Assembly: GCA_048939995.1 (NCBI GenBank)
Contig: JBHLOY010000030.1
Coordinates: 1-16,538 of the forward strand
Direction: 5' to 3'
Origin: Promethearchaeota archaeon
GTDB lineage: Archaea > Asgardarchaeota > Lokiarchaeia > Sigyniarchaeales > SOKP01
Length of the DNA stretch: 16,538 nt
Of the stretch, positions 91-12,142 are shown piece after piece (the first letter of the stretch is position 1; every line of letters begins with the position of its first letter). Position numbers and translations under genes: made by a program. A model generated the notes under the pieces. It searched no databases and was not told the DNA's origin. It was given only the letters and a program-made list of their open reading frames with translations.

Positions 91-1305
91 ATGAACATTC
101 TCGTTCTTCAAGAAACAGATTGGCTTACTCGAGGTCCACATACACAACACCATATTTTTGAGAGGATGTCAAAAAATCCAAAAATTAAAATCACTGTACT
201 TGATTATGATATTGATAAAACGATGCGTTCTAAATCAATTTTGATTAAAAAGCAAATTTTTAATAAAACTGATCGGGCAATAACAGGTTCAAATGTTACC
301 GTTATTCGAACAGCTCATATTCAAGTACCTTATTTTAGGAGAATATCCTCATTAATAACCAACTCATTTGAAATGCTTAACTTGTTTAAGAAAGACCGAC
401 CAGACATAATAGTAGCTTTCTCTCTAACAAATGGATTAATCGGTTTAATATTATCAAAATTATATGGAATTCCTTTTGTTTTTTACTATATTGATATGCT
501 TCACACCTTGATTTCTCTTGAATACATTAAAAAGGTTGCCCAGCTCTTTTCGCGGCTTTTATTTAAGAAATCAGATAAAAATATTGTAGTTACAAAATCT
601 CTTCAAAAATATGCATTAAATCAAGGAGTTAAAGAAATGTATGTCCAAGTTCTTCTAAATGGAATTTCTCTGGAAAACACAGTTGTAGACCAGAAAAAGC
701 TTCAACTTTTAAAAAATAAATATTTAATTAATGATGACAATTTTGTTCTATTCTTTATGGGCTATTTGTATGATTTTGCTGGATTAAAGGAGATAATCGA
801 TTATTATAATAAAGATGTGAGAAGTGGAAAATTAAAATTTAAATTTTTCATAATTGGAGATGGAGGAATTTATGATTCTTTGGTTAAATATGTTAAAGAT
901 ATTGGAGCAAATTGGGTAATTCTTACGGGAAGATTGGCTTTCTTTGAAATTACAGAATTCATTGAATTAGCAGACTTATGTCTAATGAGTTTTGACTTAA
1001 ATGAAATTACAAGAGAGATTACTCCTGTGAAAATTATGGAATATATGGCAATGAAAAAGCCAGTCTTATCTAACAGCTTACCCGGAGTTATTAAAGAGAT
1101 TGGCAGGAATAATGGTGTGATATTTTCTAAAAACCAAGTTGATTTAATCCAAAAAATTGAATCATTAAGTAAAGATAAAGAAAAATTAAAAAAAATAGGA
1201 GAAGTTGGATTCAGTTTAATTAAGAAGTATTATGTTTGGCCAAAAATTTTAAATAAATTTAGAAGTATTCTTTTAGATTTAATTAAAAAAAATCGAATTA
1301 AATAA
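91..1305 (+). CDS. Glycosyltransferase family 4 (GT-B) protein
   Basis: 404 aa ORF. The C-terminal GT-B domain has 'LFFMGYL', 'IIGDG', 'ADLCL' and 'PVKIMEYMAMKKPVL' (the P.K..EY.A...PV variant of the GT4 nucleotide-sugar motif), plus 'Y.W' near the C-terminus. Confidence 0.9.
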   Translation: MNILVLQETDWLTRGPHTQHHIFERMSKNPKIKITVLDYDIDKTMRSKSILIKKQIFNKTDRAITGSNVTVIRTAHIQVPYFRRISSLITNSFEMLNLFKKDRPDIIVAFSLTNGLIGLILSKLYGIPFVFYYIDMLHTLISLEYIKKVAQLFSRLLFKKSDKNIVVTKSLQKYALNQGVKEMYVQVLLNGISLENTVVDQKKLQLLKNKYLINDDNFVLFFMGYLYDFAGLKEIIDYYNKDVRSGKLKFKFFIIGDGGIYDSLVKYVKDIGANWVILTGRLAFFEITEFIELADLCLMSFDLNEITREITPVKIMEYMAMKKPVLSNSLPGVIKEIGRNNGVIFSKNQVDLIQKIESLSKDKEKLKKIGEVGFSLIKKYYVWPKILNKFRSILLDLIKKNRIK

Positions 1306-1338
1306 AAATATTAATAAAATAGAAGAAGATTCCTTAAA

Positions 1339-2511
1339 ATGATGAATATTGCAATGCTAACTCCCTTTTTTACAGGAGAGTTAGGTGGACCATACAACGT
1401 GATCTCAGAAATAGTGCCCTATTTAGAAAAAAAGGGAGTTACTACAAACATTTTTACAACATCAGCAATAGAGAAGTTTGGAAACAACCGTACGGAAAAT
1501 TATGAACGAAAGTCTCCCTATTTTAAGATATTTCGTCAGGATTCTTTTTTGAAATTTAGAGAATATAGAATTTCATTTAATTTGCTTCCATTTCTTTTAA
1601 AGCATGAAAGAGAGATTGATATTGTACATTCACATGCTTTAAGAAGCTATCAGGAAGATATTGGTTCGCTTTTTTCATTAATGAAAAAAAAACCTATGGT
1701 AATATCTCCTCATGGAGGAATAGGAATAAATTGGGATTATGGTGATAAAATCCCAAAAATGATCTCTGATAAGACCATCGGCTATATTAAAAAAAAATTA
1801 TTAGAGGTTCATTATGTGGCAGTTACTAAAATGGAAATCCCCTTAATAAAAAAATATGGCAATGTTGATGATAGTCACGTCCACTTCATCCCTCACGGTG
1901 TAAATACACGGATCTTTAGAAGTGTAGATTCAAGCGAACTAAAACAAAAGTTAGGTTTAGAAGCCTTTAAAGTCATTTTATATGTTGGGCGGATTGCTAA
2001 AGGAAAAGGAGTAGATAAGTTAATAAAAATTCTAAATTATTTGAATCAGAAAAATAAAGATATAAAATTAGTGATTATTGGAGGAGATGCTGGTTATTTA
2101 TCTATGGTTAAAACACTCATTAGAAAATATCAATTATCAGAAAAAGTATTAATTTTAGGATTTATCCCAAAGAAAAACCTTCCTCTATATTATTCCATGT
2201 CAGACTTGGTTATATATCCTTCAAGGCAAGAAATTTTTGGACTTGTAATATGCGAGGCTATGGCTTGTGGTAAACCTGTAATTGGGTCAGATATTTTTGG
2301 TCCAAGTGAAATTATTCAGAATGGAATAACTGGTTTTACCTCAGATTTTAAAGATTTAAGAAAATTAAGTGAACTTGTCAATGATTTGTTGAGTGATGAC
2401 AAAAAGTTAAATGAAATGGGGAAGAAAGGTTTGGAACGTGTAAAAAGCCAATATACCTGGGAAAAAACTGCTAAGTCTCACTATAAACTTTATTCAGATA
2501 TTTTAAAATAA
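1339..2511 (+). CDS. Glycosyltransferase family 4 (GT-B) protein
   Basis: 390 aa. N-terminal 'GG' (ELGGPY), 'DIVHSH', 'IPHGVN', 'YVGRI..GKG', canonical 'YPSRQEIFGLVICEAMACGKPVIG' (E-X7-E) and 'YTWEKTA'. Confidence 0.95.
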   Translation: MMNIAMLTPFFTGELGGPYNVISEIVPYLEKKGVTTNIFTTSAIEKFGNNRTENYERKSPYFKIFRQDSFLKFREYRISFNLLPFLLKHEREIDIVHSHALRSYQEDIGSLFSLMKKKPMVISPHGGIGINWDYGDKIPKMISDKTIGYIKKKLLEVHYVAVTKMEIPLIKKYGNVDDSHVHFIPHGVNTRIFRSVDSSELKQKLGLEAFKVILYVGRIAKGKGVDKLIKILNYLNQKNKDIKLVIIGGDAGYLSMVKTLIRKYQLSEKVLILGFIPKKNLPLYYSMSDLVIYPSRQEIFGLVICEAMACGKPVIGSDIFGPSEIIQNGITGFTSDFKDLRKLSELVNDLLSDDKKLNEMGKKGLERVKSQYTWEKTAKSHYKLYSDILK

Positions 2512-2533
2512 TTATGTAACTAAGTAGATTAAT

Positions 2534-3766
2534 ATGCTACGAGAAAATAATCTAAAATTTATATGGATATCTTCCTTTGGACAACTAGTTGATATTCGGA
2601 TAAGAGAACTCTCAAAATATCTAATAAGATCAAATATAAATCCTGTACTTGTGACATATAGACTCTCTAAAAAAGAAAAGTTAAATCAAAATGATTCACA
2701 GTCTGAACTCTCTACTCTTCATCTTAAAAATCCCCTGTTCAAGAACTTTAAAAACAAAATTTTCTTATACTTGAGAGAATTAGTCCTAAAATTGGCTTTC
2801 ATCTTAAAAGGGTTCCCTTTCTTATATTCTGATGTGAGTGATTACATTAAAAAAAATACAGATCTTAAATTTATTTATGCCACAGGTCCCTCCTTTTTTA
2901 CCCATATTTTGGGATATCTATTGAAAAGAAAATTTCAAATTCCTCTTATTGTTGAATACACCGATCCTTGGTATAAGAATCCATATAGGATAGGTAAAAT
3001 GAGGTGGTTGGAAAATAAAATTGATTACTTTATAGAAAGGCATATTCTCAAATCAACGGATATTATTATAACCAATACAATGTACCTAATTTCGATAATG
3101 AAAACTAATTTTCCATTTATTATAGATAAACCAATTTATAGCATCGAGGATGGATTAAAATTGCAAGAAATCTCGCAAGATCATGTAAGTGAACGAAATA
3201 AGCTTATTATAACATATGCAGGTAGAATTTATGGGAAAAGAAACATAACTCCTCTATTTAAAATCATATATCAATTGAAAAAGGAGGCTTTTTTTGAAGA
3301 TAGGCCTATTTTAATTAAGATTTATGGAGATTATCCCAAACAACTTTTTATCAGAATCTTTAAGAGGTTGAAAATTGAAGATTTTTTTTATTTAGGAGAC
3401 TTTCTGCCTAGATCTGACGTTGTTGAGGAAATAAAAAATAGTGATCTTGCTCTCCATATAGGAGAATATATAGATTATCCTACAACTGCATTTAAAGTAT
3501 GGGAATATTTAAGCTGTAGAAAAAAGATTCTTTTTTTGAATATGGAACACTCTTCTCGTTCAGACTTTATTAGAAATAATAATTTAGGATTTATAATCCC
3601 GATTGATAATCTCCCGAAAGCTAAAAATGTTTTTAAAGAGTTAATTAGTGGGATTTTTGATAATAAAATAGACCTTACTTTTGAAGAATCAAAATTGGAT
3701 CAATTTACATGGGAGAGTAGAAGTAAAAAATTTATGAGTTCAATAATATCTAAGTTTCGTGAATAA
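2534..3766 (+). CDS. Divergent GT4-like glycosyltransferase
   Basis: 410 aa. 'YATGPSF', 'IPLIVEYTDPW', 'ITYAGRIYGKRN', 'AFKVWEYL' and 'FTWE' match the TGP..DPW / K..EYL subgroup of GT-B glycosyltransferases. Confidence 0.82.
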   Translation: MLRENNLKFIWISSFGQLVDIRIRELSKYLIRSNINPVLVTYRLSKKEKLNQNDSQSELSTLHLKNPLFKNFKNKIFLYLRELVLKLAFILKGFPFLYSDVSDYIKKNTDLKFIYATGPSFFTHILGYLLKRKFQIPLIVEYTDPWYKNPYRIGKMRWLENKIDYFIERHILKSTDIIITNTMYLISIMKTNFPFIIDKPIYSIEDGLKLQEISQDHVSERNKLIITYAGRIYGKRNITPLFKIIYQLKKEAFFEDRPILIKIYGDYPKQLFIRIFKRLKIEDFFYLGDFLPRSDVVEEIKNSDLALHIGEYIDYPTTAFKVWEYLSCRKKILFLNMEHSSRSDFIRNNNLGFIIPIDNLPKAKNVFKELISGIFDNKIDLTFEESKLDQFTWESRSKKFMSSIISKFRE

Positions 3767-3926: not shown

Positions 3927-5408
3927 TTAATCTTTGTTCTTTAATTCTGATACAATAGAACTATAAATTGTTTTAATGTTTATAATACTCAATAAAAATT
4001 TGAGGTCAGTCTTGGTAAAACCTTTCAAAAGAAAATTAATAGACAAATATAGAAATATGTCAATTATAATAAATATTGGAATAAAATAAAATGGGAAAGA
4101 AAATGAAATATTTACCCATAACTGAAATAAGAAAATCCCAAACATTATCACTAAGTTCCTAAATGATCCCCAATAAAATCCAAGATTAAATCTTTTATAA
4201 ATTATTGGTCTGTAGATTATTTGTGTAACTATTTTTGCAATTAGGTACGAAATTGCTCCTCCAAACACGTCTAAATTAAGAAATGAAGGAGAAATAAAGA
4301 AAATCATAAATAATATTGATAGCACATTTTCTAAAACTGAAAACTTCGCAATAAAACGAATTTCTCCTAAAGCCTGTAATTGTACAACATTTCCAATGTC
4401 AAGAGAAATAGGAATCAAAAGTAATACAAAAATAAATAAAATTTGACCTGTTAATCGATATTCATTACCAAACAATAATACAAAAAAGCCAGGAGCATAT
4501 AAATAAACGATAAAAACTATTGGTAGCAAGATTAAATTTAGAAATCGATGAGTATAGTTAATTATTTCAATGTTATCTTTCACTCTTCCGTTACTAATAT
4601 TCTTTGAAAAGGTAGTTATCAAAACATTTGAAATACTATTTGAAATAATCAAGAAATAATAAAAGAACTGTTTTGCAGTATAATAATTAGCTACATTATC
4701 AATAGAAGACCATGTATTAATCAATAATACATCAATGTTACTAACTATAAATAACAAACTGTTAGTAAAGAAGAATGGAAAACTATATTTGAAAAATCTA
4801 ATAATTAGTTCTTGATTTGGTTTTTTAAACTTCCTTTTTCTTAAAAAAAATAAGCTCAAGATAAAATGTGAAATATTAGATAATAAAATTATATTCATTA
4901 ATAACCAGATATCAAATTCAAAAAAAAATATTGATAAGATTAATAATATGTTTCTCAATAGCATCATAATCAATGAACATAAAGAATTTTTGAACACTTC
5001 TTTTTTACTTAAAAAAACTTGTTGAAAAAATTCAACTCTAAAAAAGCTCATAGCTATGAAAAAATAGTATCCTACGAAGATATTTCCTTCATAAGTTGGG
5101 GCTATTGGAATAAAAGCTAATACAAATATAGTGTAGATTGCAAATTGAAAAGTTCGAAATGTTAAAAAAGTCCCATTATATAATGCTTCTTCATCAGAAT
5201 TTTTAGCTTCGCCATAAAATTTCAAGTAAGCTAATTGGATTCCTAAATCAGTTATAAGACTAAATGTGGTAAGAAATGACAAGATTACCCCATAATATCC
5301 AACAATTTCAACAACAAAAAGAATTCTAATTAAATAGAAAAAAATCAAACTCAATGCAATATTGATTATATTTCCAATAATTAGAAGAAAAATTTTTGTG
5401 GAATCCAT
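3927..5408 (-). CDS. Oligosaccharide/polysaccharide flippase (Wzx/MOP superfamily)
   Basis: 493 aa, highly hydrophobic with many predicted TM segments. It has 'G.YG', 'TDLGI', 'FKYSFPF', 'NID.LLI', 'VANYYTA', 'LFG.EY' and 'GGAIS' motifs typical of polysaccharide-export flippases, and sits in a glycosyltransferase locus. Confidence 0.88.
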   Translation of the reverse strand: MDSTKIFLLIIGNIINIALSLIFFYLIRILFVVEIVGYYGVILSFLTTFSLITDLGIQLAYLKFYGEAKNSDEEALYNGTFLTFRTFQFAIYTIFVLAFIPIAPTYEGNIFVGYYFFIAMSFFRVEFFQQVFLSKKEVFKNSLCSLIMMLLRNILLILSIFFFEFDIWLLMNIILLSNISHFILSLFFLRKRKFKKPNQELIIRFFKYSFPFFFTNSLLFIVSNIDVLLINTWSSIDNVANYYTAKQFFYYFLIISNSISNVLITTFSKNISNGRVKDNIEIINYTHRFLNLILLPIVFIVYLYAPGFFVLLFGNEYRLTGQILFIFVLLLIPISLDIGNVVQLQALGEIRFIAKFSVLENVLSILFMIFFISPSFLNLDVFGGAISYLIAKIVTQIIYRPIIYKRFNLGFYWGSFRNLVIMFGIFLFQLWVNISFSFPFYFIPIFIIIDIFLYLSINFLLKGFTKTDLKFLLSIINIKTIYSSIVSELKNKD

Positions 5409-5475
5409 TGAAACATAAAACGAAAATTTTACTATAAATTTTGTTAATAGAAAAAATTATTTTAAATCTCTTTTT

Positions 5476-6354
5476 TCACACAATTTGAGAATTTAACCAA
5501 ATAGATAAATCTATATTTAATAAATTTTCTAACTCCTTAATATCAGTACTATATTGTGCATATAGTTTATTCTTTAATCGTAAATTTAACTTATCTTGAT
5601 CTTTCTTTTTTTCTGATAAGTCAAATATTTTCTTAAAAATCTTTAGTTTTGACGAAAGTGAATATAAATCATACGACATTAAAAAATTGTTTATATATTC
5701 AGAGAACTTGTATCCAAATGTATATAATAAATGGAATTTAGGAATATCTGAAGAATGAATTTTTTTTGTTACATTCAGGTTATCAAATGCATCATAATTA
5801 ATTCCTAAAAATCTTGAAATATTTTTAAGTGTCTTATATTTATTATTCATCATTTCTTCAAAAAACAATATAAGAAATCGTTCTTGTGGAAAAAATTTTA
5901 ACCAATTTTTTAAGTGTCGAGAATAGAGGCCAAGTTTAAAGGAGTGTGGCCGTTTATCCAAAAACTCCTTAAAACTTTCTTTATTATTTAAAATTAATCT
6001 ATTATATCTATATTCTGAAAATGCTCTATCTATTGGATTCCTTAAAAGCAAGATGAATTTAGAATTCGGGATATCTCTAGCCACACGAGCGGGAACTTCT
6101 TTATAATGAAAATATGTTGGGGAAATATCTCCTAACATTTTAAATTGAGGTGATTTTTTTGAAGATCGAAAAAATTTCTCATACCATCTTAACCCATTTT
6201 GATAATTAACACTAAAAAAGTTAATTTCTTTTATATAAGGGTATAAGTACACCTCAGGGTGATTTTTCAAAATTTCATATAACCATGTAGTACCACTTCT
6301 TTCAACACCTATACATAAGAAATCAGGAAGTATTTGCTCCCTATTATTTAACAA
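5476..6354 (-). CDS. PAPS-dependent sulfotransferase (heparan-sulfate-sulfotransferase-like domain)
   Basis: TTG start. 5'-PSB loop 'LPDFLCIGVERSGTTWLY', 'HP.V...KEINFF..NY..G..WY', 'GDISPTY', and 3'-PB motif 'LLRNPIDRAFSEY'. No signal peptide is apparent. Confidence 0.92.
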   Translation of the reverse strand: MLNNREQILPDFLCIGVERSGTTWLYEILKNHPEVYLYPYIKEINFFSVNYQNGLRWYEKFFRSSKKSPQFKMLGDISPTYFHYKEVPARVARDIPNSKFILLLRNPIDRAFSEYRYNRLILNNKESFKEFLDKRPHSFKLGLYSRHLKNWLKFFPQERFLILFFEEMMNNKYKTLKNISRFLGINYDAFDNLNVTKKIHSSDIPKFHLLYTFGYKFSEYINNFLMSYDLYSLSSKLKIFKKIFDLSEKKKDQDKLNLRLKNKLYAQYSTDIKELENLLNIDLSIWLNSQIV

Positions 6355-6497
6355 AATTGTCTCAATTAACTTATACCGTTACCTTAAGGATCCAAATATA
6401 TCAATTAAATTAAATATTTTCAACTTTGAATTATCAATCTGTAAATATTTTTGAAAAAAAGTTAATTTTTATGAATAGAAAATAATAATTGATATTA

Positions 6498-7031
6498 TTA
6501 AATAGGTAAATATCCCATTTTGTTTAATTCATCTAATATTATTTTTTTACTTTCTTCTACTGTTTGCTTATCAGTTTCAACAATTATATCTGCATGATTA
6601 GGGACCTCAAAAGGATGATCAATTCCAGTGAAATCTTTGATTTGGCCTGCTCTTGCTTTTGCAAACATACCTTTTACATCTCTTTGTTCACAAACCTCAA
6701 GTGAACATTTAACATAAACAAGGATATAATCTCCGATTTCCTTTCGAGAGTAATCACGAATCTTATTGTAGGGTGATACAAAAGAAGCGAGTACAGCAAC
6801 CCCATTTCGAGTCAATAATTTAGCAACAAATGTGACTCTTTCTATATTCATGTTTCTATCTTCTTCTGAAAATCCCAAATCGCGAGTGAGGCTTTTTCTG
6901 ACAATATCTCCATCAAGCCTCTCAACTTTCATTCCTCTATCCTTTAAGTCTTTAGCTACAGCATCAGCTAAGACAGTTTTTCCCGAACAAGGAAGTCCTG
7001 TAAACCACAGTGTAAATCCTTTATGTTCTAT
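6498..7031 (-). CDS. cysC: Adenylyl-sulfate (APS) kinase
   Basis: The ORF track starts at 6932, but the same frame extends 33 codons upstream through the P-loop: (ATA)EHKGFTLWFTGLPCSGKTVLADAVAKDLKDRG-MKVERLDGDIVR. It also has 'DLGFS.EDR..NIERV', 'SFVSPY', 'RDVKGM' and 'FTGID.PFE.P'. The probable start is ATA at 7031-7029, 7 nt after GGTGA. Confidence 0.93.
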   Translation of the reverse strand: MEHKGFTLWFTGLPCSGKTVLADAVAKDLKDRGMKVERLDGDIVRKSLTRDLGFSEEDRNMNIERVTFVAKLLTRNGVAVLASFVSPYNKIRDYSRKEIGDYILVYVKCSLEVCEQRDVKGMFAKARAGQIKDFTGIDHPFEVPNHADIIVETDKQTVEESKKIILDELNKMGYLPI

Positions 7032-7038
7032 TTTTTCT

Positions 7039-7044
7039 TCACCT
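7039..7044 (-). promoter_or_regulatory. Shine-Dalgarno-like AGGTGA upstream of cysC
   Basis: The minus strand reads TAA TA-AGGTGA-AGAAAAA-ATA GAA CAT. GGTGA is the archaeal-type SD core, at normal spacing from the ATA codon. Confidence 0.5.
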
Positions 7045-7046
7045 TA

Positions 7047-8435
7047 TTAAAATTTTATAATATTACCTTCCATATCTTTTGGAATTTCAATTCCTAAAAT
7101 TGATAAACAAGTTGGAGCAATGTCTAATATACTTTTAGTTCCTAATTCTTTTCCAATCTTCAATTTTGGATTGGATATAATATAGATTCCATAATAATCA
7201 TGAACAGCATCATCTGGTCCAGTATCATTCTCTTTTAAATACATTGAATCATAACCTACTGTACCAGCTGATCTCCAATTTAGATCATCGAAATATACCA
7301 TCAAATCAGGTGGGTCTCCGCGAATTTTTGAATAGAAATCCTCTGGTCTGTAGACTCTTGTATTCATAATGTTTCCCGCGTCATCTTTTATTGATTTAAT
7401 TTTCTCAGCCACAAAAGTTCTCATTTTTTCATAATCTTCTTCTTTAATTATACCTTGAGGCTCTCTTCCTTCAACATTCAAAAAGATTCGAGCATAATAA
7501 CCCCCCCACCCCCAGGCGTAAGTTTTACTCCAATCTATTTCAGCGTTTTCTAATCTAGTTCCTGGTTCAGGCCTCTTTTTGAATACTAATAATCCTAACT
7601 CTTCAAAAGCCATATTAATACATATTAACCCTTTCATAGCTTTAGCTCCATGATCAGATGCTATAATAACAGTGGTAATGTCATCCAGAAGATCTAATAC
7701 TTCTCCTACTTCTTTATCTAAAAATCTATAGTAATTTCGCATTTCATTTTCGAACTCATTACCTGGAATATATTTACTATGCTCTTTATCAAAATATTTC
7801 CAGAAAGCATGATGAAATCTATCTAAACCTATAATAACAAACTGAAAGTAGTCCCATTCTTTAGTTTTCATTAAATGTCTTATTGTCTTAAATTGAATTG
7901 TTGTCATTTCATAAATTTCATTTAACAGAGCTTTTTTATCATCTATTCTAAAATTAGCGTCTAGAATATATTTTCCAACTTCTCTTTTTATTTCTTCTTT
8001 CAGTTCTGGTGGAAATGTGTAGTTTGAATCTATATCAGGTGCTATAAAACCAGCAATTAAATTTCCGTTAATAGATTTGACTGGATAGGTAGGTGGAGTT
8101 CCAATAATTATGCTTTTTAATCCACTCTTGCCAATTATATCCCAGATGGTAGGTTCTTTTATTGAATACGAACTAGCAATCCAAAAATCATTATATGCAT
8201 ATTGTTTTCGATGTCTAAATCCATAAAGTCCAAGTGTTCCTGCTTTTTTGCCCGTTGCCATAACCATCCATGCTGGAATCGTTATAGGGGGATCTGAACT
8301 TTTTAACTTTCCATAGACTCCTTTTCCCATTAATTTTCTTATGTTTGGGCAATCATCAATAAATTCATTAAATAAAGTTCTTGGACTAGCACAATCGAGA
8401 CCAATTAAGACTAATTTCTTCTTTTGATTATTCAT
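7047..8435 (-). CDS. Alkaline phosphatase superfamily protein (type I phosphodiesterase / nucleotide pyrophosphatase-like)
   Basis: 462 aa. Metal ligands 'GLDCA', 'DRFHH', 'SDHG' and 'DAVH', with a Thr nucleophile in 'SSDPPITIPAW...TGK..G..G.YGF'. There is no CxPxR sulfatase motif and no signal peptide. Confidence 0.88.
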   Translation of the reverse strand: MNNQKKKLVLIGLDCASPRTLFNEFIDDCPNIRKLMGKGVYGKLKSSDPPITIPAWMVMATGKKAGTLGLYGFRHRKQYAYNDFWIASSYSIKEPTIWDIIGKSGLKSIIIGTPPTYPVKSINGNLIAGFIAPDIDSNYTFPPELKEEIKREVGKYILDANFRIDDKKALLNEIYEMTTIQFKTIRHLMKTKEWDYFQFVIIGLDRFHHAFWKYFDKEHSKYIPGNEFENEMRNYYRFLDKEVGEVLDLLDDITTVIIASDHGAKAMKGLICINMAFEELGLLVFKKRPEPGTRLENAEIDWSKTYAWGWGGYYARIFLNVEGREPQGIIKEEDYEKMRTFVAEKIKSIKDDAGNIMNTRVYRPEDFYSKIRGDPPDLMVYFDDLNWRSAGTVGYDSMYLKENDTGPDDAVHDYYGIYIISNPKLKIGKELGTKSILDIAPTCLSILGIEIPKDMEGNIIKF

Positions 8436-8467
8436 AACGAAATTGACTCAACATTCTGAATTGTAAA

Positions 8468-9616
8468 TTATGTTACAAATGGATTTTCATATTTTAAAAT
8501 AACCTCAGCGACTTCTGGTCTCATTACTTCGGGATCAGGTGGTTTACCTGCTAAGAGAGCAGCTCTAATCTCTCGACCTGCAAAATAATTCTGCATATTA
8601 GGCGGATGTGGGCAAATTTTATCGTTTACAACTGCTTCACATTTACGGCATTTAGAAAAAGAACGAAATTTAATAGGTTCGATTCCCAAATCTGGAAATT
8701 TGTCAAAAATAAAATGGGCATCATAAGGACCATAATAATCACCCACTCCAGCATGATCTCTTCCAATAATTATATGAGTGCATCCAAAATTCTTACGAGC
8801 TATCGCATGATATATAGCTTCTTTAGGACCTGCATATCTCATCTCTGTTTCAAATGTACTTATTACAACTCGATCCCTAGGATAATATTCTTTAATTAGC
8901 GCTTTATAAGCTTCAATAATTACGATATCCAAGAAATCACCTTCCTTTTTCTTTCCAATTACTGGATTTATGAATAATCCATCGACATATGTTAACCCTG
9001 CTTTTTGTACATACTCGTGACCCAGGTGTGGAGGGTTTCTTGTTTGAAATGCCACCACTCTTTCCCACTTTTTTTCCTTAAATAAGACTCTCGTTTCTAT
9101 AGGCTTTAAATCTAATTCAGGAAAAGAAGCAACTGGTTCATTAATAAGGAAAATCTGTCCTCCCATTAATTTATCTTTATAATTAAAAGTATTGTTAACA
9201 CCTGGATGATTTCTATCTAGTGTTCCATAGGTCTTCATAGCATATTCCTTTTTGTCATAACTATAAATATCTTCGATACTCATGAGAGCAATTGGGTAAT
9301 CTTTTTTGTCTGTTAAAATAATTTGATCATCTGGCTCAATATTCTTGGCTTCCTCATCTGAAACATCTAGAGTAATAGGAATCGGCCAAGGAACATCCTT
9401 TTCTAAATACATCGTGTCTAAAACATATTGATAATCATTTTGATTCATAAAACCTTCTAAAGGACTGAAAACTCCAAATGAAATACTTTTAATTATCTTT
9501 AGGGTTTCATTATCTACTTGGATTTTTTCAAACTCGTTGGTTTGTTTTAAAATCCTTTCTTTCTCAAACTTAGGTAACACTTTATTAATTAAAGTGCCTC
9601 CATGTGGCGCTATCAT
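8468..9616 (-). CDS. sat: Sulfate adenylyltransferase (ATP sulfurylase, Sat type)
   Basis: 382 aa. 'MIAPHGG.L', 'SPLEGFM', 'WPIPITL', 'HPGV', 'VAFQTRNPPHLGHEY', 'MRYAGPKEA', 'GRDHAGVGDYY', Zn site 'CRKC...CPH' and 'MRPEV'. Confidence 0.97.
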   Translation of the reverse strand: MIAPHGGTLINKVLPKFEKERILKQTNEFEKIQVDNETLKIIKSISFGVFSPLEGFMNQNDYQYVLDTMYLEKDVPWPIPITLDVSDEEAKNIEPDDQIILTDKKDYPIALMSIEDIYSYDKKEYAMKTYGTLDRNHPGVNNTFNYKDKLMGGQIFLINEPVASFPELDLKPIETRVLFKEKKWERVVAFQTRNPPHLGHEYVQKAGLTYVDGLFINPVIGKKKEGDFLDIVIIEAYKALIKEYYPRDRVVISTFETEMRYAGPKEAIYHAIARKNFGCTHIIIGRDHAGVGDYYGPYDAHFIFDKFPDLGIEPIKFRSFSKCRKCEAVVNDKICPHPPNMQNYFAGREIRAALLAGKPPDPEVMRPEVAEVILKYENPFVT

Positions 9617-9662
9617 TATTTTTTCCTTTAAAGTTAATTTAATTTCTATTATAAGTTAAAAT

Positions 9663-9902
9663 TTAATCAATATAACCTAAGTCTCTCAGTCTTTGTTTAA
9701 CTTTCTCTTCCTCTTCTTCAGTAAAAGCTTGTTTTGATCGTTCTTCTTCTTCAATGGAAGATAGAACTTGCCTAAGAATATAAGTCACATAACTAGAAAC
9801 TGAGGAGAATCCTGTTCCCTTCATTCGCTCTTTTATTTTTTCTGCTAATACTTTAGGGATTGATACTGTTGTATATTCAACCTTATGTTCATCTTCGGAC
9901 AT
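9663..9902 (-). CDS. Ribbon-helix-helix (CopG/MetJ/Arc-like) DNA-binding protein with acidic 'RLxxLGY' C-terminal tail
   Basis: 79 aa. A beta-strand 'YTTVSIP', helix A 'KVLAEKIKERM', 'GFSSVS' turn and helix B 'SYVTYILRQVL' form the RHH pattern. The tail is 'FTEEEEEKVKQRLRDLGYID'. It is the first gene of the sat operon. Confidence 0.82.
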   Translation of the reverse strand: MSEDEHKVEYTTVSIPKVLAEKIKERMKGTGFSSVSSYVTYILRQVLSSIEEEERSKQAFTEEEEEKVKQRLRDLGYID

Positions 9903-10133: not shown

Positions 10134-11159
10134 ATGCAAGTTTCTCATCCAAGTATATCCATTATATTTCCTTCCTATAATGGTGTAAAATTTCTTGAAA
10201 GAAATTTAAATTCAATAAAATCATTAGATAACTTGGATGAAATTGAATTAATCATTATAGATAATAAATCGAAAGATTCCAGTATAAAGGTAATAAACTC
10301 ATTTGAGAATTATATTAATATTAAGCTTGTAAAAAATAAATGCAATGAAGGATTTGCTGAAGCATGTAATTGTGGAGTAATTAACGCAGATGGAGATTTT
10401 GTATTTATCACCAATCAAGACGTTGTTTTTCCTCCCGATTTTTTCTCTAAATTGAAAAATTTATACTTCAAATATAAAAGAAATCATGAGATTGTTATCT
10501 CTCCAGCCCTAGTGTTTGAGAATGGAAGAATACACTATTTTGGAGCAAAAAACCATTTTTTAGGATTTTCTTATACGCCTGAATTAGGTGAGAAATTACC
10601 AAAGAACAAAATATTAAAGATAACGCAAAGATTTTCTGGTGGAACTCTCTTTATAAAAAAGAGCTATTTCTTGGAAATGGGAGGTTTTGAGAAAGAATAT
10701 TTTATGTATTATGAAGACACAGATCTTTCCCTTAAAATGATGAATAATGGAAATATGATTTTAACTACTAATGATCCATACTTAATTCATCAAAAAAAAT
10801 CTCAGAATATGAATAAGCTGCAGTATTTCTTCCTGGAGCGAAACAGATATCTCATTCTACTTAAAAATGTAGACAATCTATCAAAATTATTGCCAATTAT
10901 TATTCTTACTGAATTTATCCTATTATTCCACTCACTTTTTTTAAGAAAATTTCGCTTACGACTCAGAATCTATATGGAATTACTTAAAAAAATTAAGTGC
11001 TATAGAAAATTAAGGGAAAAAGCCAAAAAAGAAAATAAATTAATACCTTATCAGAGTTTATCAAGAACTCTTGATCCTATTTTATTAGGAAAATTAGCGA
11101 AATTGAATGTTTTTAAAAAATTGCTTCATCTTTTTAATCGGCTACTTAAATTTATATGA
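10134..11159 (+). CDS. Glycosyltransferase family 2 (GT-A; resembles rhamnosyltransferase-like GT2s)
   Basis: 341 aa. 'SIIFPSYN', 'IIDNKSKD', 'NEGFAEACN.G', 'NQD', 'GGFE..YFMYYEDTDLS' and 'ERNR'. Confidence 0.92.
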   Translation: MQVSHPSISIIFPSYNGVKFLERNLNSIKSLDNLDEIELIIIDNKSKDSSIKVINSFENYINIKLVKNKCNEGFAEACNCGVINADGDFVFITNQDVVFPPDFFSKLKNLYFKYKRNHEIVISPALVFENGRIHYFGAKNHFLGFSYTPELGEKLPKNKILKITQRFSGGTLFIKKSYFLEMGGFEKEYFMYYEDTDLSLKMMNNGNMILTTNDPYLIHQKKSQNMNKLQYFFLERNRYLILLKNVDNLSKLLPIIILTEFILLFHSLFLRKFRLRLRIYMELLKKIKCYRKLREKAKKENKLIPYQSLSRTLDPILLGKLAKLNVFKKLLHLFNRLLKFI

Positions 11160-11161
11160 TT

Positions 11162-12142
11162 TTAAAACTTCTGCAAGTTCTTAATATATCTGTAATCTGA
11201 GATCATATATTTTCTGCACGATCTATTGGTTCGGCGCCTTACACCAATCCTAAATCCTTGTATAATAGAAATAATTCTAATTTTTATTTTATTCATTTTC
11301 CTAAATAATATATTTAATCCAATAATACCGAGATTCATAATTATAAAAATATAATAAAATATCAGTATATCAAGTATCTTTGCATGTTTCCAAACTAAAA
11401 TTTGTGCGTTTCTTGTAAAAAAGTGATGATTAAACACCATTCTCTCCTCACTGATTATACGGGGAACATTATGATAAATAGTAGTAGTCGGAACATAATA
11501 TGATTTGTATCCTTCTTTTTTGGCTCGAAAATTCCAATCAGGATCTTCATGATACATGAAAAAGATCTCATCAATTAATCCCACTTTGTTTATAACATCT
11601 TTTCTTATAAAGACGGCAGTACCGGGGGCGAAATCAATCTCCTCAATTTTGGTATATTCTCTATTATGGGGATCATATTCTAAATATCCCCTATTTCCTA
11701 TTACTATAGCAGATTTATAGTCTATAAATGAACCCGCATTCCATAAAAGCGCTTCATTATCTAAAATTTTAATTCTTGGACTGATCATTCCAGCATTGGG
11801 ATATTTTTCTAAAAACTCAACCATTCTTTCTACGTAATCAGGTGATAATACTACATCAAAATTCAGCAAACAGATATAATCTCCTTTAGCAGTCTTTATA
11901 GCTTTATTGTTACCTGCTCCGTAATAAAGATTTCTTTTACTTCTGATCAGCTTCAAATTGAGCTCATTCTTAAATTCTTCAAGGCTTTTATTTAAATTTA
12001 AAAATAAATCATATTTTGAACCGTTATCTAATACAATAACTTCAAAATTCTTATAACTTTGATCTAATAATGATTTTACACAAGAAATAGTATCTTGATA
12101 CTTATTATAATTAACAATAATTATAGAAACTAATTTCTCCAT
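11162..12142 (-). CDS. Glycosyltransferase family 2 (GT-A; resembles rhamnosyltransferase-like GT2s)
   Basis: 326 aa. 'VSIIIVNYN', 'VLDNGS', 'N.YYGAGNN', 'LLNFD', 'VGLIDE.FFMYHEDPDW..RA' and 'TRN', with a hydrophobic segment near the C-terminus. Confidence 0.92.
   Translation of the reverse strand: MEKLVSIIIVNYNKYQDTISCVKSLLDQSYKNFEVIVLDNGSKYDLFLNLNKSLEEFKNELNLKLIRSKRNLYYGAGNNKAIKTAKGDYICLLNFDVVLSPDYVERMVEFLEKYPNAGMISPRIKILDNEALLWNAGSFIDYKSAIVIGNRGYLEYDPHNREYTKIEEIDFAPGTAVFIRKDVINKVGLIDEIFFMYHEDPDWNFRAKKEGYKSYYVPTTTIYHNVPRIISEERMVFNHHFFTRNAQILVWKHAKILDILIFYYIFIIMNLGIIGLNILFRKMNKIKIRIISIIQGFRIGVRRRTNRSCRKYMISDYRYIKNLQKF

Follow-up and report, generated by a model that had tools for sequence, protein, structure and literature searches.

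Can an Asgard archaeon sulfate the glycans of its surface, and are the genes for this kept together as one unit? Both questions are raised by a run of six genes on contig JBHLOY010000030.1 of a Promethearchaeota archaeon. The stretch of DNA analyzed here (the window) is this whole 16.5-kb contig (C2), which belongs to a metagenome-assembled genome (MAG) of 3.75 Mb in 38 contigs (~30% G+C, 98% complete). Six minus-strand open reading frames (ORFs), all in one orientation, were recognized by ORF calls and Pfam searches. They code for a small protein resembling ribbon-helix-helix (RHH) proteins, the ATP sulfurylase Sat, an NPP-family enzyme, the adenosine 5′-phosphosulfate (APS) kinase CysC, a sulfotransferase and a Wzx-like flippase. 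An earlier reading of the letters alone (the sequence-only reading) had described six co-oriented genes, flanked by glycosyltransferase (GT) genes of the families GT4 and GT2 and separated by gaps of 46, 32, 15, 143 and 67 bp; ORF calls and Pfam confirmed this, the 15-bp value requiring a cysC start at ATA 7031. The named best homologs of the NPP-family enzyme (67–82% identity) and of the sulfotransferase (57–61%) come from Promethearchaeota, Loki, Thor, Hod and Odin MAGs and support the suggested Asgard host; a 16S gene is absent from the assembly.

On balance, we favor a reading in which the run consists of two or three modules sharing 3′-phosphoadenosine 5′-phosphosulfate (PAPS), and in which the sulfotransferase sulfates a lipid-linked surface glycan before it is flipped. 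Sat would make APS and pyrophosphate, the NPP-family enzyme would remove the pyrophosphate and thereby pull the unfavorable Sat reaction, and CysC would phosphorylate APS to PAPS, with the RHH-like protein as a fixed partner of the module, acting as regulator and/or NPP-binding protein. At the cytoplasmic face, the sulfotransferase would sulfate a lipid-linked (dolichol-phosphate) glycan on a hydroxyl group of one of its sugars, Wzx would flip the sulfated glycan, and AglB or a polymerase would attach it to surface proteins or a polymer. PAPS from the same pool would also serve two tandem sulfotransferases of a second glycan locus. In this model we infer what the acceptor is, that sulfation precedes flipping, that the NPP-family enzyme acts as a pyrophosphatase, and where the transcription units lie.

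The sulfotransferase and its acceptor

The sulfotransferase, which had been proposed to be cytoplasmic, is soluble, has no transmembrane segment and resembles carbohydrate sulfotransferases. Its 5′-phosphosulfate-binding (5′-PSB) loop reads GVERSGTTW (residues 16–24); T22 never varies, and nearly every family member has R or K at position 20. An Arg at this Lys position, as in the window enzyme, occurs in TPSTs as well. The 3′-phosphate-binding (3′-PB) motif (R-x7-S) is LRNPIDRAFSEY (RNPIDRAFS), in which R105 is invariant and S113 nearly so, and it aligns with RDPVTRAISDY of 3-OST-3. Further, the segment KEINFF contains an invariant Glu, E43, whose counterpart in 3-OST-3 is the Glu of EPHFF; this Glu is the catalytic base.

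Solved structures were searched by sequence and with a structure model. By sequence, the best matches were 3RNL, an uncharacterized protein of Alicyclobacillus (1e-21), and the heparan-sulfate enzyme 3-OST-3A1 (2e-21); 3-OST-3A1, 3-OST-5 and 3-OST-1 together span 2e-21 to 1e-18, followed by NDST1 (2e-17) and the cytosolic SULTs (1e-6). The AlphaFold2 (AF2) model (pLDDT 85) was matched by Foldseek with probability 1.00 to 3RNL, NDST1 and the 3-OSTs, the E-values being 3e-14 for 3RNL, 2e-12 for NDST1, 1e-11 to 1e-10 for the 3-OSTs, 3e-7 for CurM and 2e-6 for TPST. Judged by sequence and model, the enzyme is a member of the heparan-sulfate 3-OST/NDST-like group, and the same comparisons support a carbohydrate as its acceptor. 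A link between Asgard archaea and eukaryotes through a heparan-sulfate-like sulfotransferase was considered and rejected, as bacterial homologs (Chthoniobacterales, Planctomycetes, Dehalococcoidia, Alicyclobacillus) are equally close. Since similar sulfotransferases are common in bacteria, no special link to eukaryotic glycosaminoglycan sulfation is implied.

Relatives of the enzyme are rare in the phylum sample of 301 genomes (19 genomes). One ortholog of 58% identity (genome G132) adjoins a 69% ortholog of the first GT4 gene of the window, with the PAPS module ~16 kb away, and other relatives adjoin rml, GT2 or GT4 genes. CysC is present in 17 of the 18 other genomes with a sulfotransferase match, compared to 131 of 301 overall; these genomes are kin, and the figures describe a tendency, not a statistic. 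Directly downstream of the sulfotransferase gene lies a Polysacc_synt/Polysacc_synt_3 gene with 12 hydrophobic segments in a hydropathy scan, which agrees with the Wzx/MOP flippase named earlier and for which flipping is predicted. AglB (STT3) is present in the genome.

The sequence-only reading had found no reductive genes in the window and assigned PAPS to sulfation instead of assimilation or respiration, which also holds genome-wide. Neither PF01507 (PAPS_reduct) nor PF01077 (NIR_SIR sulfite reductase) has a match in the whole genome, although the former profile matches all 14 control genomes, and AprA is not found above cut-off in the whole genome. As genes of the reductive pathway were not found, and sat (a single match) and cysC (a sole true copy) each occur once, PAPS is predicted to be made for sulfation. 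On the other hand, the module is not private to this locus: it is the only PAPS source for four sulfotransferase-family genes, three of which lie on other contigs. Two stand in tandem in a second glycan locus (contig C32, L155:8151-18432), together with genes for a polysaccharide pyruvyl transferase, a methyltransferase, GT4 and GT2 enzymes, an NPP-like protein and a sulfatase-family protein. The remaining one (392 aa, contig C31) is sulfotransferase-like and has a non-glycan context. Split transketolase and PfkB genes adjoin the C32 locus and are found directly downstream of cysC in sister-genus genomes; because of this placement, C2 and C32 may be pieces of one island. As a side observation, many genomes of the same genus (among them G083, G174, G264 and G267; 99–100% complete) carry a Sulfotransfer_3 gene (~380 aa where listed) and no CysC; these proteins either use no self-made PAPS or are not sulfotransferases.

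Several points weigh against the favored reading. The acceptor is deduced only from family resemblance and neighborhood, and 3RNL, the closest structure, has no assigned substrate. One genome (G138, 99% complete) holds a 46% ortholog of the sulfotransferase (C44:26836-27684) and no true APS kinase, with only weak matches of P-loop kinases. A DHH-type phosphatase for 3′-phosphoadenosine 5′-phosphate (PAP) was not found: the genome has no homolog of the DHH protein from a DHVE2 locus described below, and none lies between sat and the NPP gene. The only candidate in the genome to clear PAP is one Inositol_P (CysQ/SuhB-family) gene. No in-frame ATG, GTG or TTG was found before the P-loop of cysC. 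The role of the NPP-family enzyme as pyrophosphatase goes back to secondary citations of Lee et al. (2009), and the enzyme was likened to TON_1705 of Thermococcus onnurineus by position and family. In the parts used here of a glycoproteomics paper on the cultured Asgard archaeon Promethearchaeum syntrophicum, the one sulfated sugar mentioned belongs to the Sulfolobus control glycan (PMC11284389). Finally, the model as a whole, including the sulfated surface glycan, is a prediction, and one that probably holds.

An acceptor other than an export-bound, lipid-linked glycan, namely a glycolipid head group, a small metabolite or a protein sulfated with PAPS of the module, appears unlikely to us. 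Haloarchaea have sulfated glycolipids, and the missing substrate of 3RNL would suit such an acceptor, as would the fold family, which includes TPST, CurM and cytosolic SULTs. However, these score more weakly, and the heparan-sulfate enzymes surpass TPST and the SULTs by five or more orders of magnitude. Similarly, the pathway is incomplete in view, since neither an initiating transferase nor a polymerase is encoded on the contig, but the gene lies between the PAPS module and a Wzx flippase within a GT/rml island, and its relatives in other genomes keep the same company of GT and rml genes.

The surface chemistry of Asgard archaea is almost unknown. With a genome behind it, the prediction of surface-glycan sulfation in some Lokiarchaeia-type strains gives mass spectrometry and enzyme assays something definite to look for.

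Synteny and the position between cysC and the flippase

The coordinates of the genes and spacers are given in Table 1. Beyond the flanking GT genes, the contig encodes a methyltransferase, RmlA, an SDR-family protein, RmlC and RmlD (an rml-like set).

Table 1. Features of the window (positions on the forward strand of the contig).
Feature	Positions	Strand	Basis or remark
GT4 genes (n=3)	91-3766	+	Flank of the six-gene run
Wzx/MOP-type flippase (Polysacc_synt), 493 aa	3927-5408	-	PF13440 53.9 bits, PF01943 48.8 bits, over cut-offs
67-bp spacer	5409-5475	-	Second T-run and AAAATTTATAG box, ~27 nt upstream of the ATG of the flippase gene
Soluble PAPS-type sulfotransferase, 292 aa	5476-6354	-	Sulfotransfer_1 PF00685, 7e-29; Sulfotransfer_3 PF13469
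143-bp spacer	6355-6497	-	T7 run, then AAAAATATTTACAG box
APS kinase CysC	6498-7031	-	APS_kinase (Pfam), 2e-46; first-ATG ORF 6498-6932
NPP-family enzyme (alkaline-phosphatase superfamily), 462 aa	7047-8435	-	Phosphodiest PF01663, 6e-44
ATP sulfurylase Sat, 382 aa	8468-9616	-	PUA_2 and ATP-sulfurylase (Pfam), 9e-82
Small RHH-like protein, 79 aa	9663-9902	-	First gene of the four-gene module; AF2/Foldseek resemblance
GT2 gene	10134-11159	+	Flank of the six-gene run
GT2 gene	11162-12142	-	Flank of the six-gene run

Gene order was compared in two samples. Full-length orthologs of the NPP-family enzyme (45–83% identity) are present in about 70 of the 301 phylum genomes, and 60 loci were mapped with all window proteins; in a scan of species representatives, the best 80 of >560 NPP relatives (50–81% identity) were examined as named loci. 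The order RHH-sat-NPP-cysC is kept in essentially every phylum locus not truncated at the end of its contig, and the same four-gene core is found in about 80 named loci. Because this order recurs in 60 plus about 80 loci, it is not due to chance. Among the best 80 relatives, the archaeal hosts are Asgard lineages, Bathyarchaeia, Hydrothermarchaeota, Hadarchaeota, Thermoplasmata, DHVE2 and Archaeoglobaceae, and the bacterial ones include Aminicenantes, Saccharicenans, Eubacteriales, Eisenbacteria, Omnitrophota, Desulfotomaculum copahuensis and Paenibacillus campi. The occurrence in archaea and bacteria implies wide transfer between the domains. In the bacterial loci (L109–L153) the NPP proteins are 50–56% identical, and an SDR/epimerase gene often follows cysC; the DHVE2 locus, with an NPP 55% identical to that of the window, reads RHH-sat-DHH-NPP-cysC-sulfate symporter. 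By its gene content and order, RHH-sat-NPP-cysC of the window is the Asgard copy of a widespread, already published sulfate-activation unit. Other forms of PAPS supply were seen in passing: one family (f7) has a fused sat-cysC gene (~580 aa), many sulfotransferases and no NPP module, and in another (f29) cysC directly adjoins Sulfotransfer_3 genes without NPP.

The sulfotransferase does not share this conservation. A gene of its type stands beside the module in none of the about 140 other loci; of the synteny proposed for the cassette, therefore, the four-gene part was recovered and the six-gene order was not. Genomes of the same genus share the island layout GT2a< RHH>sat>NPP>cysC> ... flippase> <GT4c <GT4b <GT4a, and it is between cysC and the flippase that they differ. 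In two close relatives (G141 and G109), the flippase gene begins ~75 bp after cysC, with no sulfotransferase between. In G121 (L006:3966-7342), the slot contains genes for a TagF-like glycerophosphotransferase, a major facilitator superfamily (MFS) protein and a nucleotidyltransferase. The slot of G219 (L007:1196-7277) holds a phosphonate set, consisting of a TagF-like gene, a phosphoenolpyruvate (PEP) mutase-nucleotidyltransferase fusion, a gene resembling thiamine pyrophosphate (TPP)-dependent decarboxylases, an iron-type alcohol dehydrogenase gene (Fe-ADH) and nucleotidyltransferases. Among these genomes, the PAPS genes are 81–95% identical (68% for cysC of G109), versus 56–70% for the flippase and GT4c; for the flippase taken by itself, the range is 58–70%. 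In the window, G+C is 0.32–0.35 in the PAPS genes versus 0.25 in the sulfotransferase and 0.24 in the flippase gene, with the drop at the cysC/sulfotransferase boundary. Because slot contents, identities and G+C differ in this way, we regard the sulfotransferase as a strain-specific occupant of a variable slot.

The spacers show a similar division. A T7–T9 run followed by AAAA(A/C/G)ATTTA(T/C)AG is found just downstream of cysC in the window and in both close relatives lacking the sulfotransferase. These relatives have one such element, about 27 nt before the flippase ATG, and the window has two copies (5409-5475 and 6400-6470) in which the T-run is joined to AAAA(T)ATTTA(T/C)AG; the copy in the 67-bp spacer aligns with the cysC-flippase junction of the relatives. 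A TATA-like box is also present upstream of the RHH gene. The element in the 143-bp spacer may end transcription of the PAPS module and act as promoter for the gene downstream. As T-runs and TATA-like boxes follow both cysC and the sulfotransferase gene, separate promoters are suggested, and three transcription units (PAPS module, sulfotransferase, flippase) are possible, as is read-through between them. The insertion of the sulfotransferase seemingly duplicated the promoter-terminator junction or brought its own.

Against this background, a single self-contained sulfation operon, with all six genes co-transcribed under a regulator of their own and inherited together, seems very unlikely. The genes are co-oriented with short gaps, and archaeal T-run terminators are often leaky, which would permit read-through from the RHH promoter. 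Nevertheless, this does not account for an order without parallel in the other loci, for two close relatives having the same island without a sulfotransferase at the slot, for the fall in G+C, for the boxes before the sulfotransferase and flippase genes, the latter conserved in relatives, or for the three sulfotransferase-family genes elsewhere that depend on the same PAPS. The cassette was consequently abandoned as a single unit, and movement of the whole six-gene set as a unit was rejected on synteny.

The preferred reading of separate modules leaves room for a further, tentative suggestion, which we consider possible but more doubtful than the reading itself. In this genus, the position between cysC and the flippase may be a swap slot for anionic glycan decorations, namely sulfate in the window, glycerol phosphate in G121 and phosphonate in G219, and the window strain may use its heparan-sulfate-type sulfotransferase to make a sulfated, glycosaminoglycan-like surface glycan. 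No route to sulfated surface glycans would have been predicted for Asgard archaea before this one. The slot genes of G121 and G219 are themselves candidates for glycerol-phosphate and phosphonate decoration of Asgard glycans. If a swap slot exists, the charge chemistry of the coat would vary from strain to strain. The locus itself also reads differently now: the PAPS unit is housekeeping-like, shared and widely transferred, and what is particular to the strain lies in the variable slot beside it.

Proteins of the PAPS module and the start of cysC

Sat is clearly assigned: NF003166 scores 488 bits at a cut-off of 387, TIGR00339 is likewise over cut-off (NCBIfam), and the signature motifs QTRNPPHLGH and GRD are present. 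The NPP-family enzyme has no signal or transmembrane segment and is thus expected in the cytoplasm. Its Thr nucleophile (T52) and six metal ligands (D14, D205, H209, D261, H262, H412) are invariant in 16 orthologs, for which reason the enzyme is considered competent; a phmmer search against the PDB gave no match. It had been called an uncharacterized accessory enzyme, which needs correction, as it is the equivalent, by position and family, of a published Thermococcales NPP-type gene whose product is reported to be a pyrophosphatase (PMC8268124, PMC4463584). By this analogy, the NPP-family enzyme is most likely a pyrophosphatase clearing the pyrophosphate of Sat.

The small first protein, proposed to be the operon's own RHH regulator, has no match in Pfam or NCBIfam. 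Its AF2 model (monomer, pLDDT 75) consists of three helices and no strand. Foldseek ranks almost exclusively RHH proteins at the top (ParD, PutA-RHH, Arc, omega, CopA), with TM-scores of 0.76 to PutA RHH and 0.67 to Arc, but all have E>1 and none is significant. A profile search of the PDB reached the RHH domain of NikR at E of about 0.4. The RHH label is therefore plausible from the model. At the C-terminus (9663-9740), a conserved acidic helix is followed by the tail ...RLRDLGYID, and within the pattern R-L-x-x-L-G-Y-I/L the LGY is invariant in about 130 orthologs (L006–L154), from Asgard archaea to Aminicenantes and Firmicutes. Further, the gene is directly upstream of NPP in nearly all loci, including six without sat (L109, L117, L131, L146, L150, L152). 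Because LGY is invariant and the gene stays beside NPP where sat is missing, the protein looks like a partner of NPP, beyond a mere regulator. ParD-type RHH proteins use a partner-binding tail.

The APS kinase assignment is equally firm (TIGR00455, 229 bits, cut-off 139), and the P-loop GLPCSGKT as well as DGD and FVSPY are present. The P-loop, however, is encoded upstream of the first ATG (6932), and the APS_kinase match extends over model positions 1–151, beginning at 7022. With no canonical start before the P-loop, PAPS can be made only if translation begins at ATA or if slippage occurs. At the position of the Met codon in orthologs (ATG, GTG or TTG in other genera), ATA is found in eight independent assemblies with differing upstream sequences, and in six same-genus loci a Shine-Dalgarno-like GGTGA is located 5–7 nt before it. 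Between GGTGA and ATA lies an A-run of variable length (window 7011-7049; L006–L010, L028, L029), so that the GTG within GGTGA is in frame in G121, G219 and G099 but not in the window, G141 or G109. The gene is otherwise intact; it is 86–95% identical to its counterparts in four of the five same-genus loci, the exception being G109 (68%). The simplest reading is that cysC starts at ATA 7031. Initiation at ATA and homopolymer slippage were noted as the alternatives for this start; a homopolymer sequencing error as sole cause was rejected, given ATA at the Met position in eight independent assemblies.

It is very unlikely that the module fails to work, with a CysC lacking its P-loop and APS as the only product, or that NPP and RHH are the main consumers of activated sulfate, with the sulfotransferase as a bystander: the out-of-frame GTG, the two families that carry the NPP module without a PF13469 sulfotransferase in the phylum sample (f21, f22), and the invariant LGY tail of a protein that stays beside NPP without sat would fit such a view, but the placement of ATA exactly at the Met position behind GGTGA, the intact cysC coding sequence and the retention of intact, PAPS-requiring sulfotransferases in the genome stand against it.

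Comparison with known systems

The nearest published relatives of the module are clusters of Thermococcales. In Pyrococcus yayanosii, PYCH_17520-17560 comprise copG/RHH, sat, DHH, an NPP-type gene and the APS kinase gene, an 'intact' cluster of five genes, and a figure of the same paper gives this layout also for Aciduliprofundum and Ferroglobus (passages of PMC8268124). T. onnurineus has the cluster TON_1704-1707, in which the NPP-type gene TON_1705 is cited as a characterized pyrophosphatase (passages of PMC4463584 and PMC8268124). The order copG/RHH, ATP sulfurylase, NPP-type enzyme, APS kinase is the same as in the window, and the DHVE2 locus described above agrees with the P. yayanosii cluster in its DHH gene as well. 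In contrast to the Asgard version, where only a 32-bp gap separates sat and NPP, the Thermococcales cluster has a DHH-type PAP phosphatase gene between them. The hosts also differ, being hyperthermophilic Euryarchaeota and Crenarchaeota for the published clusters and an Asgard archaeon for the window. Thermococcus was not among the best 80 or best 120 NPP homologs listed, from a large family. In some archaea, a sulfotransferase gene adjoins the sulfate-activation cluster, according to the same source (PMC8268124).

For the glycan side, Haloferax volcanii offers the closest parallel. In the passages on its low-salt tetrasaccharide, Agl7 is needed to sulfate the dolichol-phosphate (DolP)-hexose, before flipping by Agl15, and Agl11–14 make the rhamnose (PMC3892788). 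The Agl5–Agl15 cluster, as there described, combines glycosyltransferases, rhamnose genes, a Wzx-like flippase and a sulfation step in the way of the window; the two were likened by description. Unlike the window, it belongs to a haloarchaeon, and the passages on the cluster describe no PAPS-making module. Sulfated dolichyl oligosaccharides have been isolated from halobacteria (cited in a passage of PMC11407970). A full-text literature search combining Asgard or Lokiarchaeota with sulfotransferase found no paper on Asgard sulfation.

The best functionally characterized matches of the sulfotransferase are the heparan 3-OSTs and NDST1 (PDB 1T8T, 6XKG, 3UAN, 1NST, 8CCY), at 20–28% identity. They share with the window enzyme the 5′-PSB loop, the 3′-PB motif RxxxxxxxS and the Glu in the KExxFF segment. 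However, the animal heparan enzymes work on polymer chains in the Golgi lumen, whereas the window enzyme is prokaryotic, soluble and predicted to be cytoplasmic. The rhizobial NodPQ and NodH provide another parallel, with an ATP sulfurylase/APS kinase pair beside a carbohydrate sulfotransferase as a dedicated PAPS supply, as in the window. They differ in being bacterial, in their CysDN-type sulfurylase, in having a secreted lipo-chitooligosaccharide as acceptor, and in lacking RHH and NPP. Set beside these systems, the locus is a new Asgard example of known parts, arranged modularly, rather than a new system; what it adds is that a canonical sulfotransferase of the carbohydrate type immediately adjoins the module, and that relatives have a variable slot for candidate anionic decorations.

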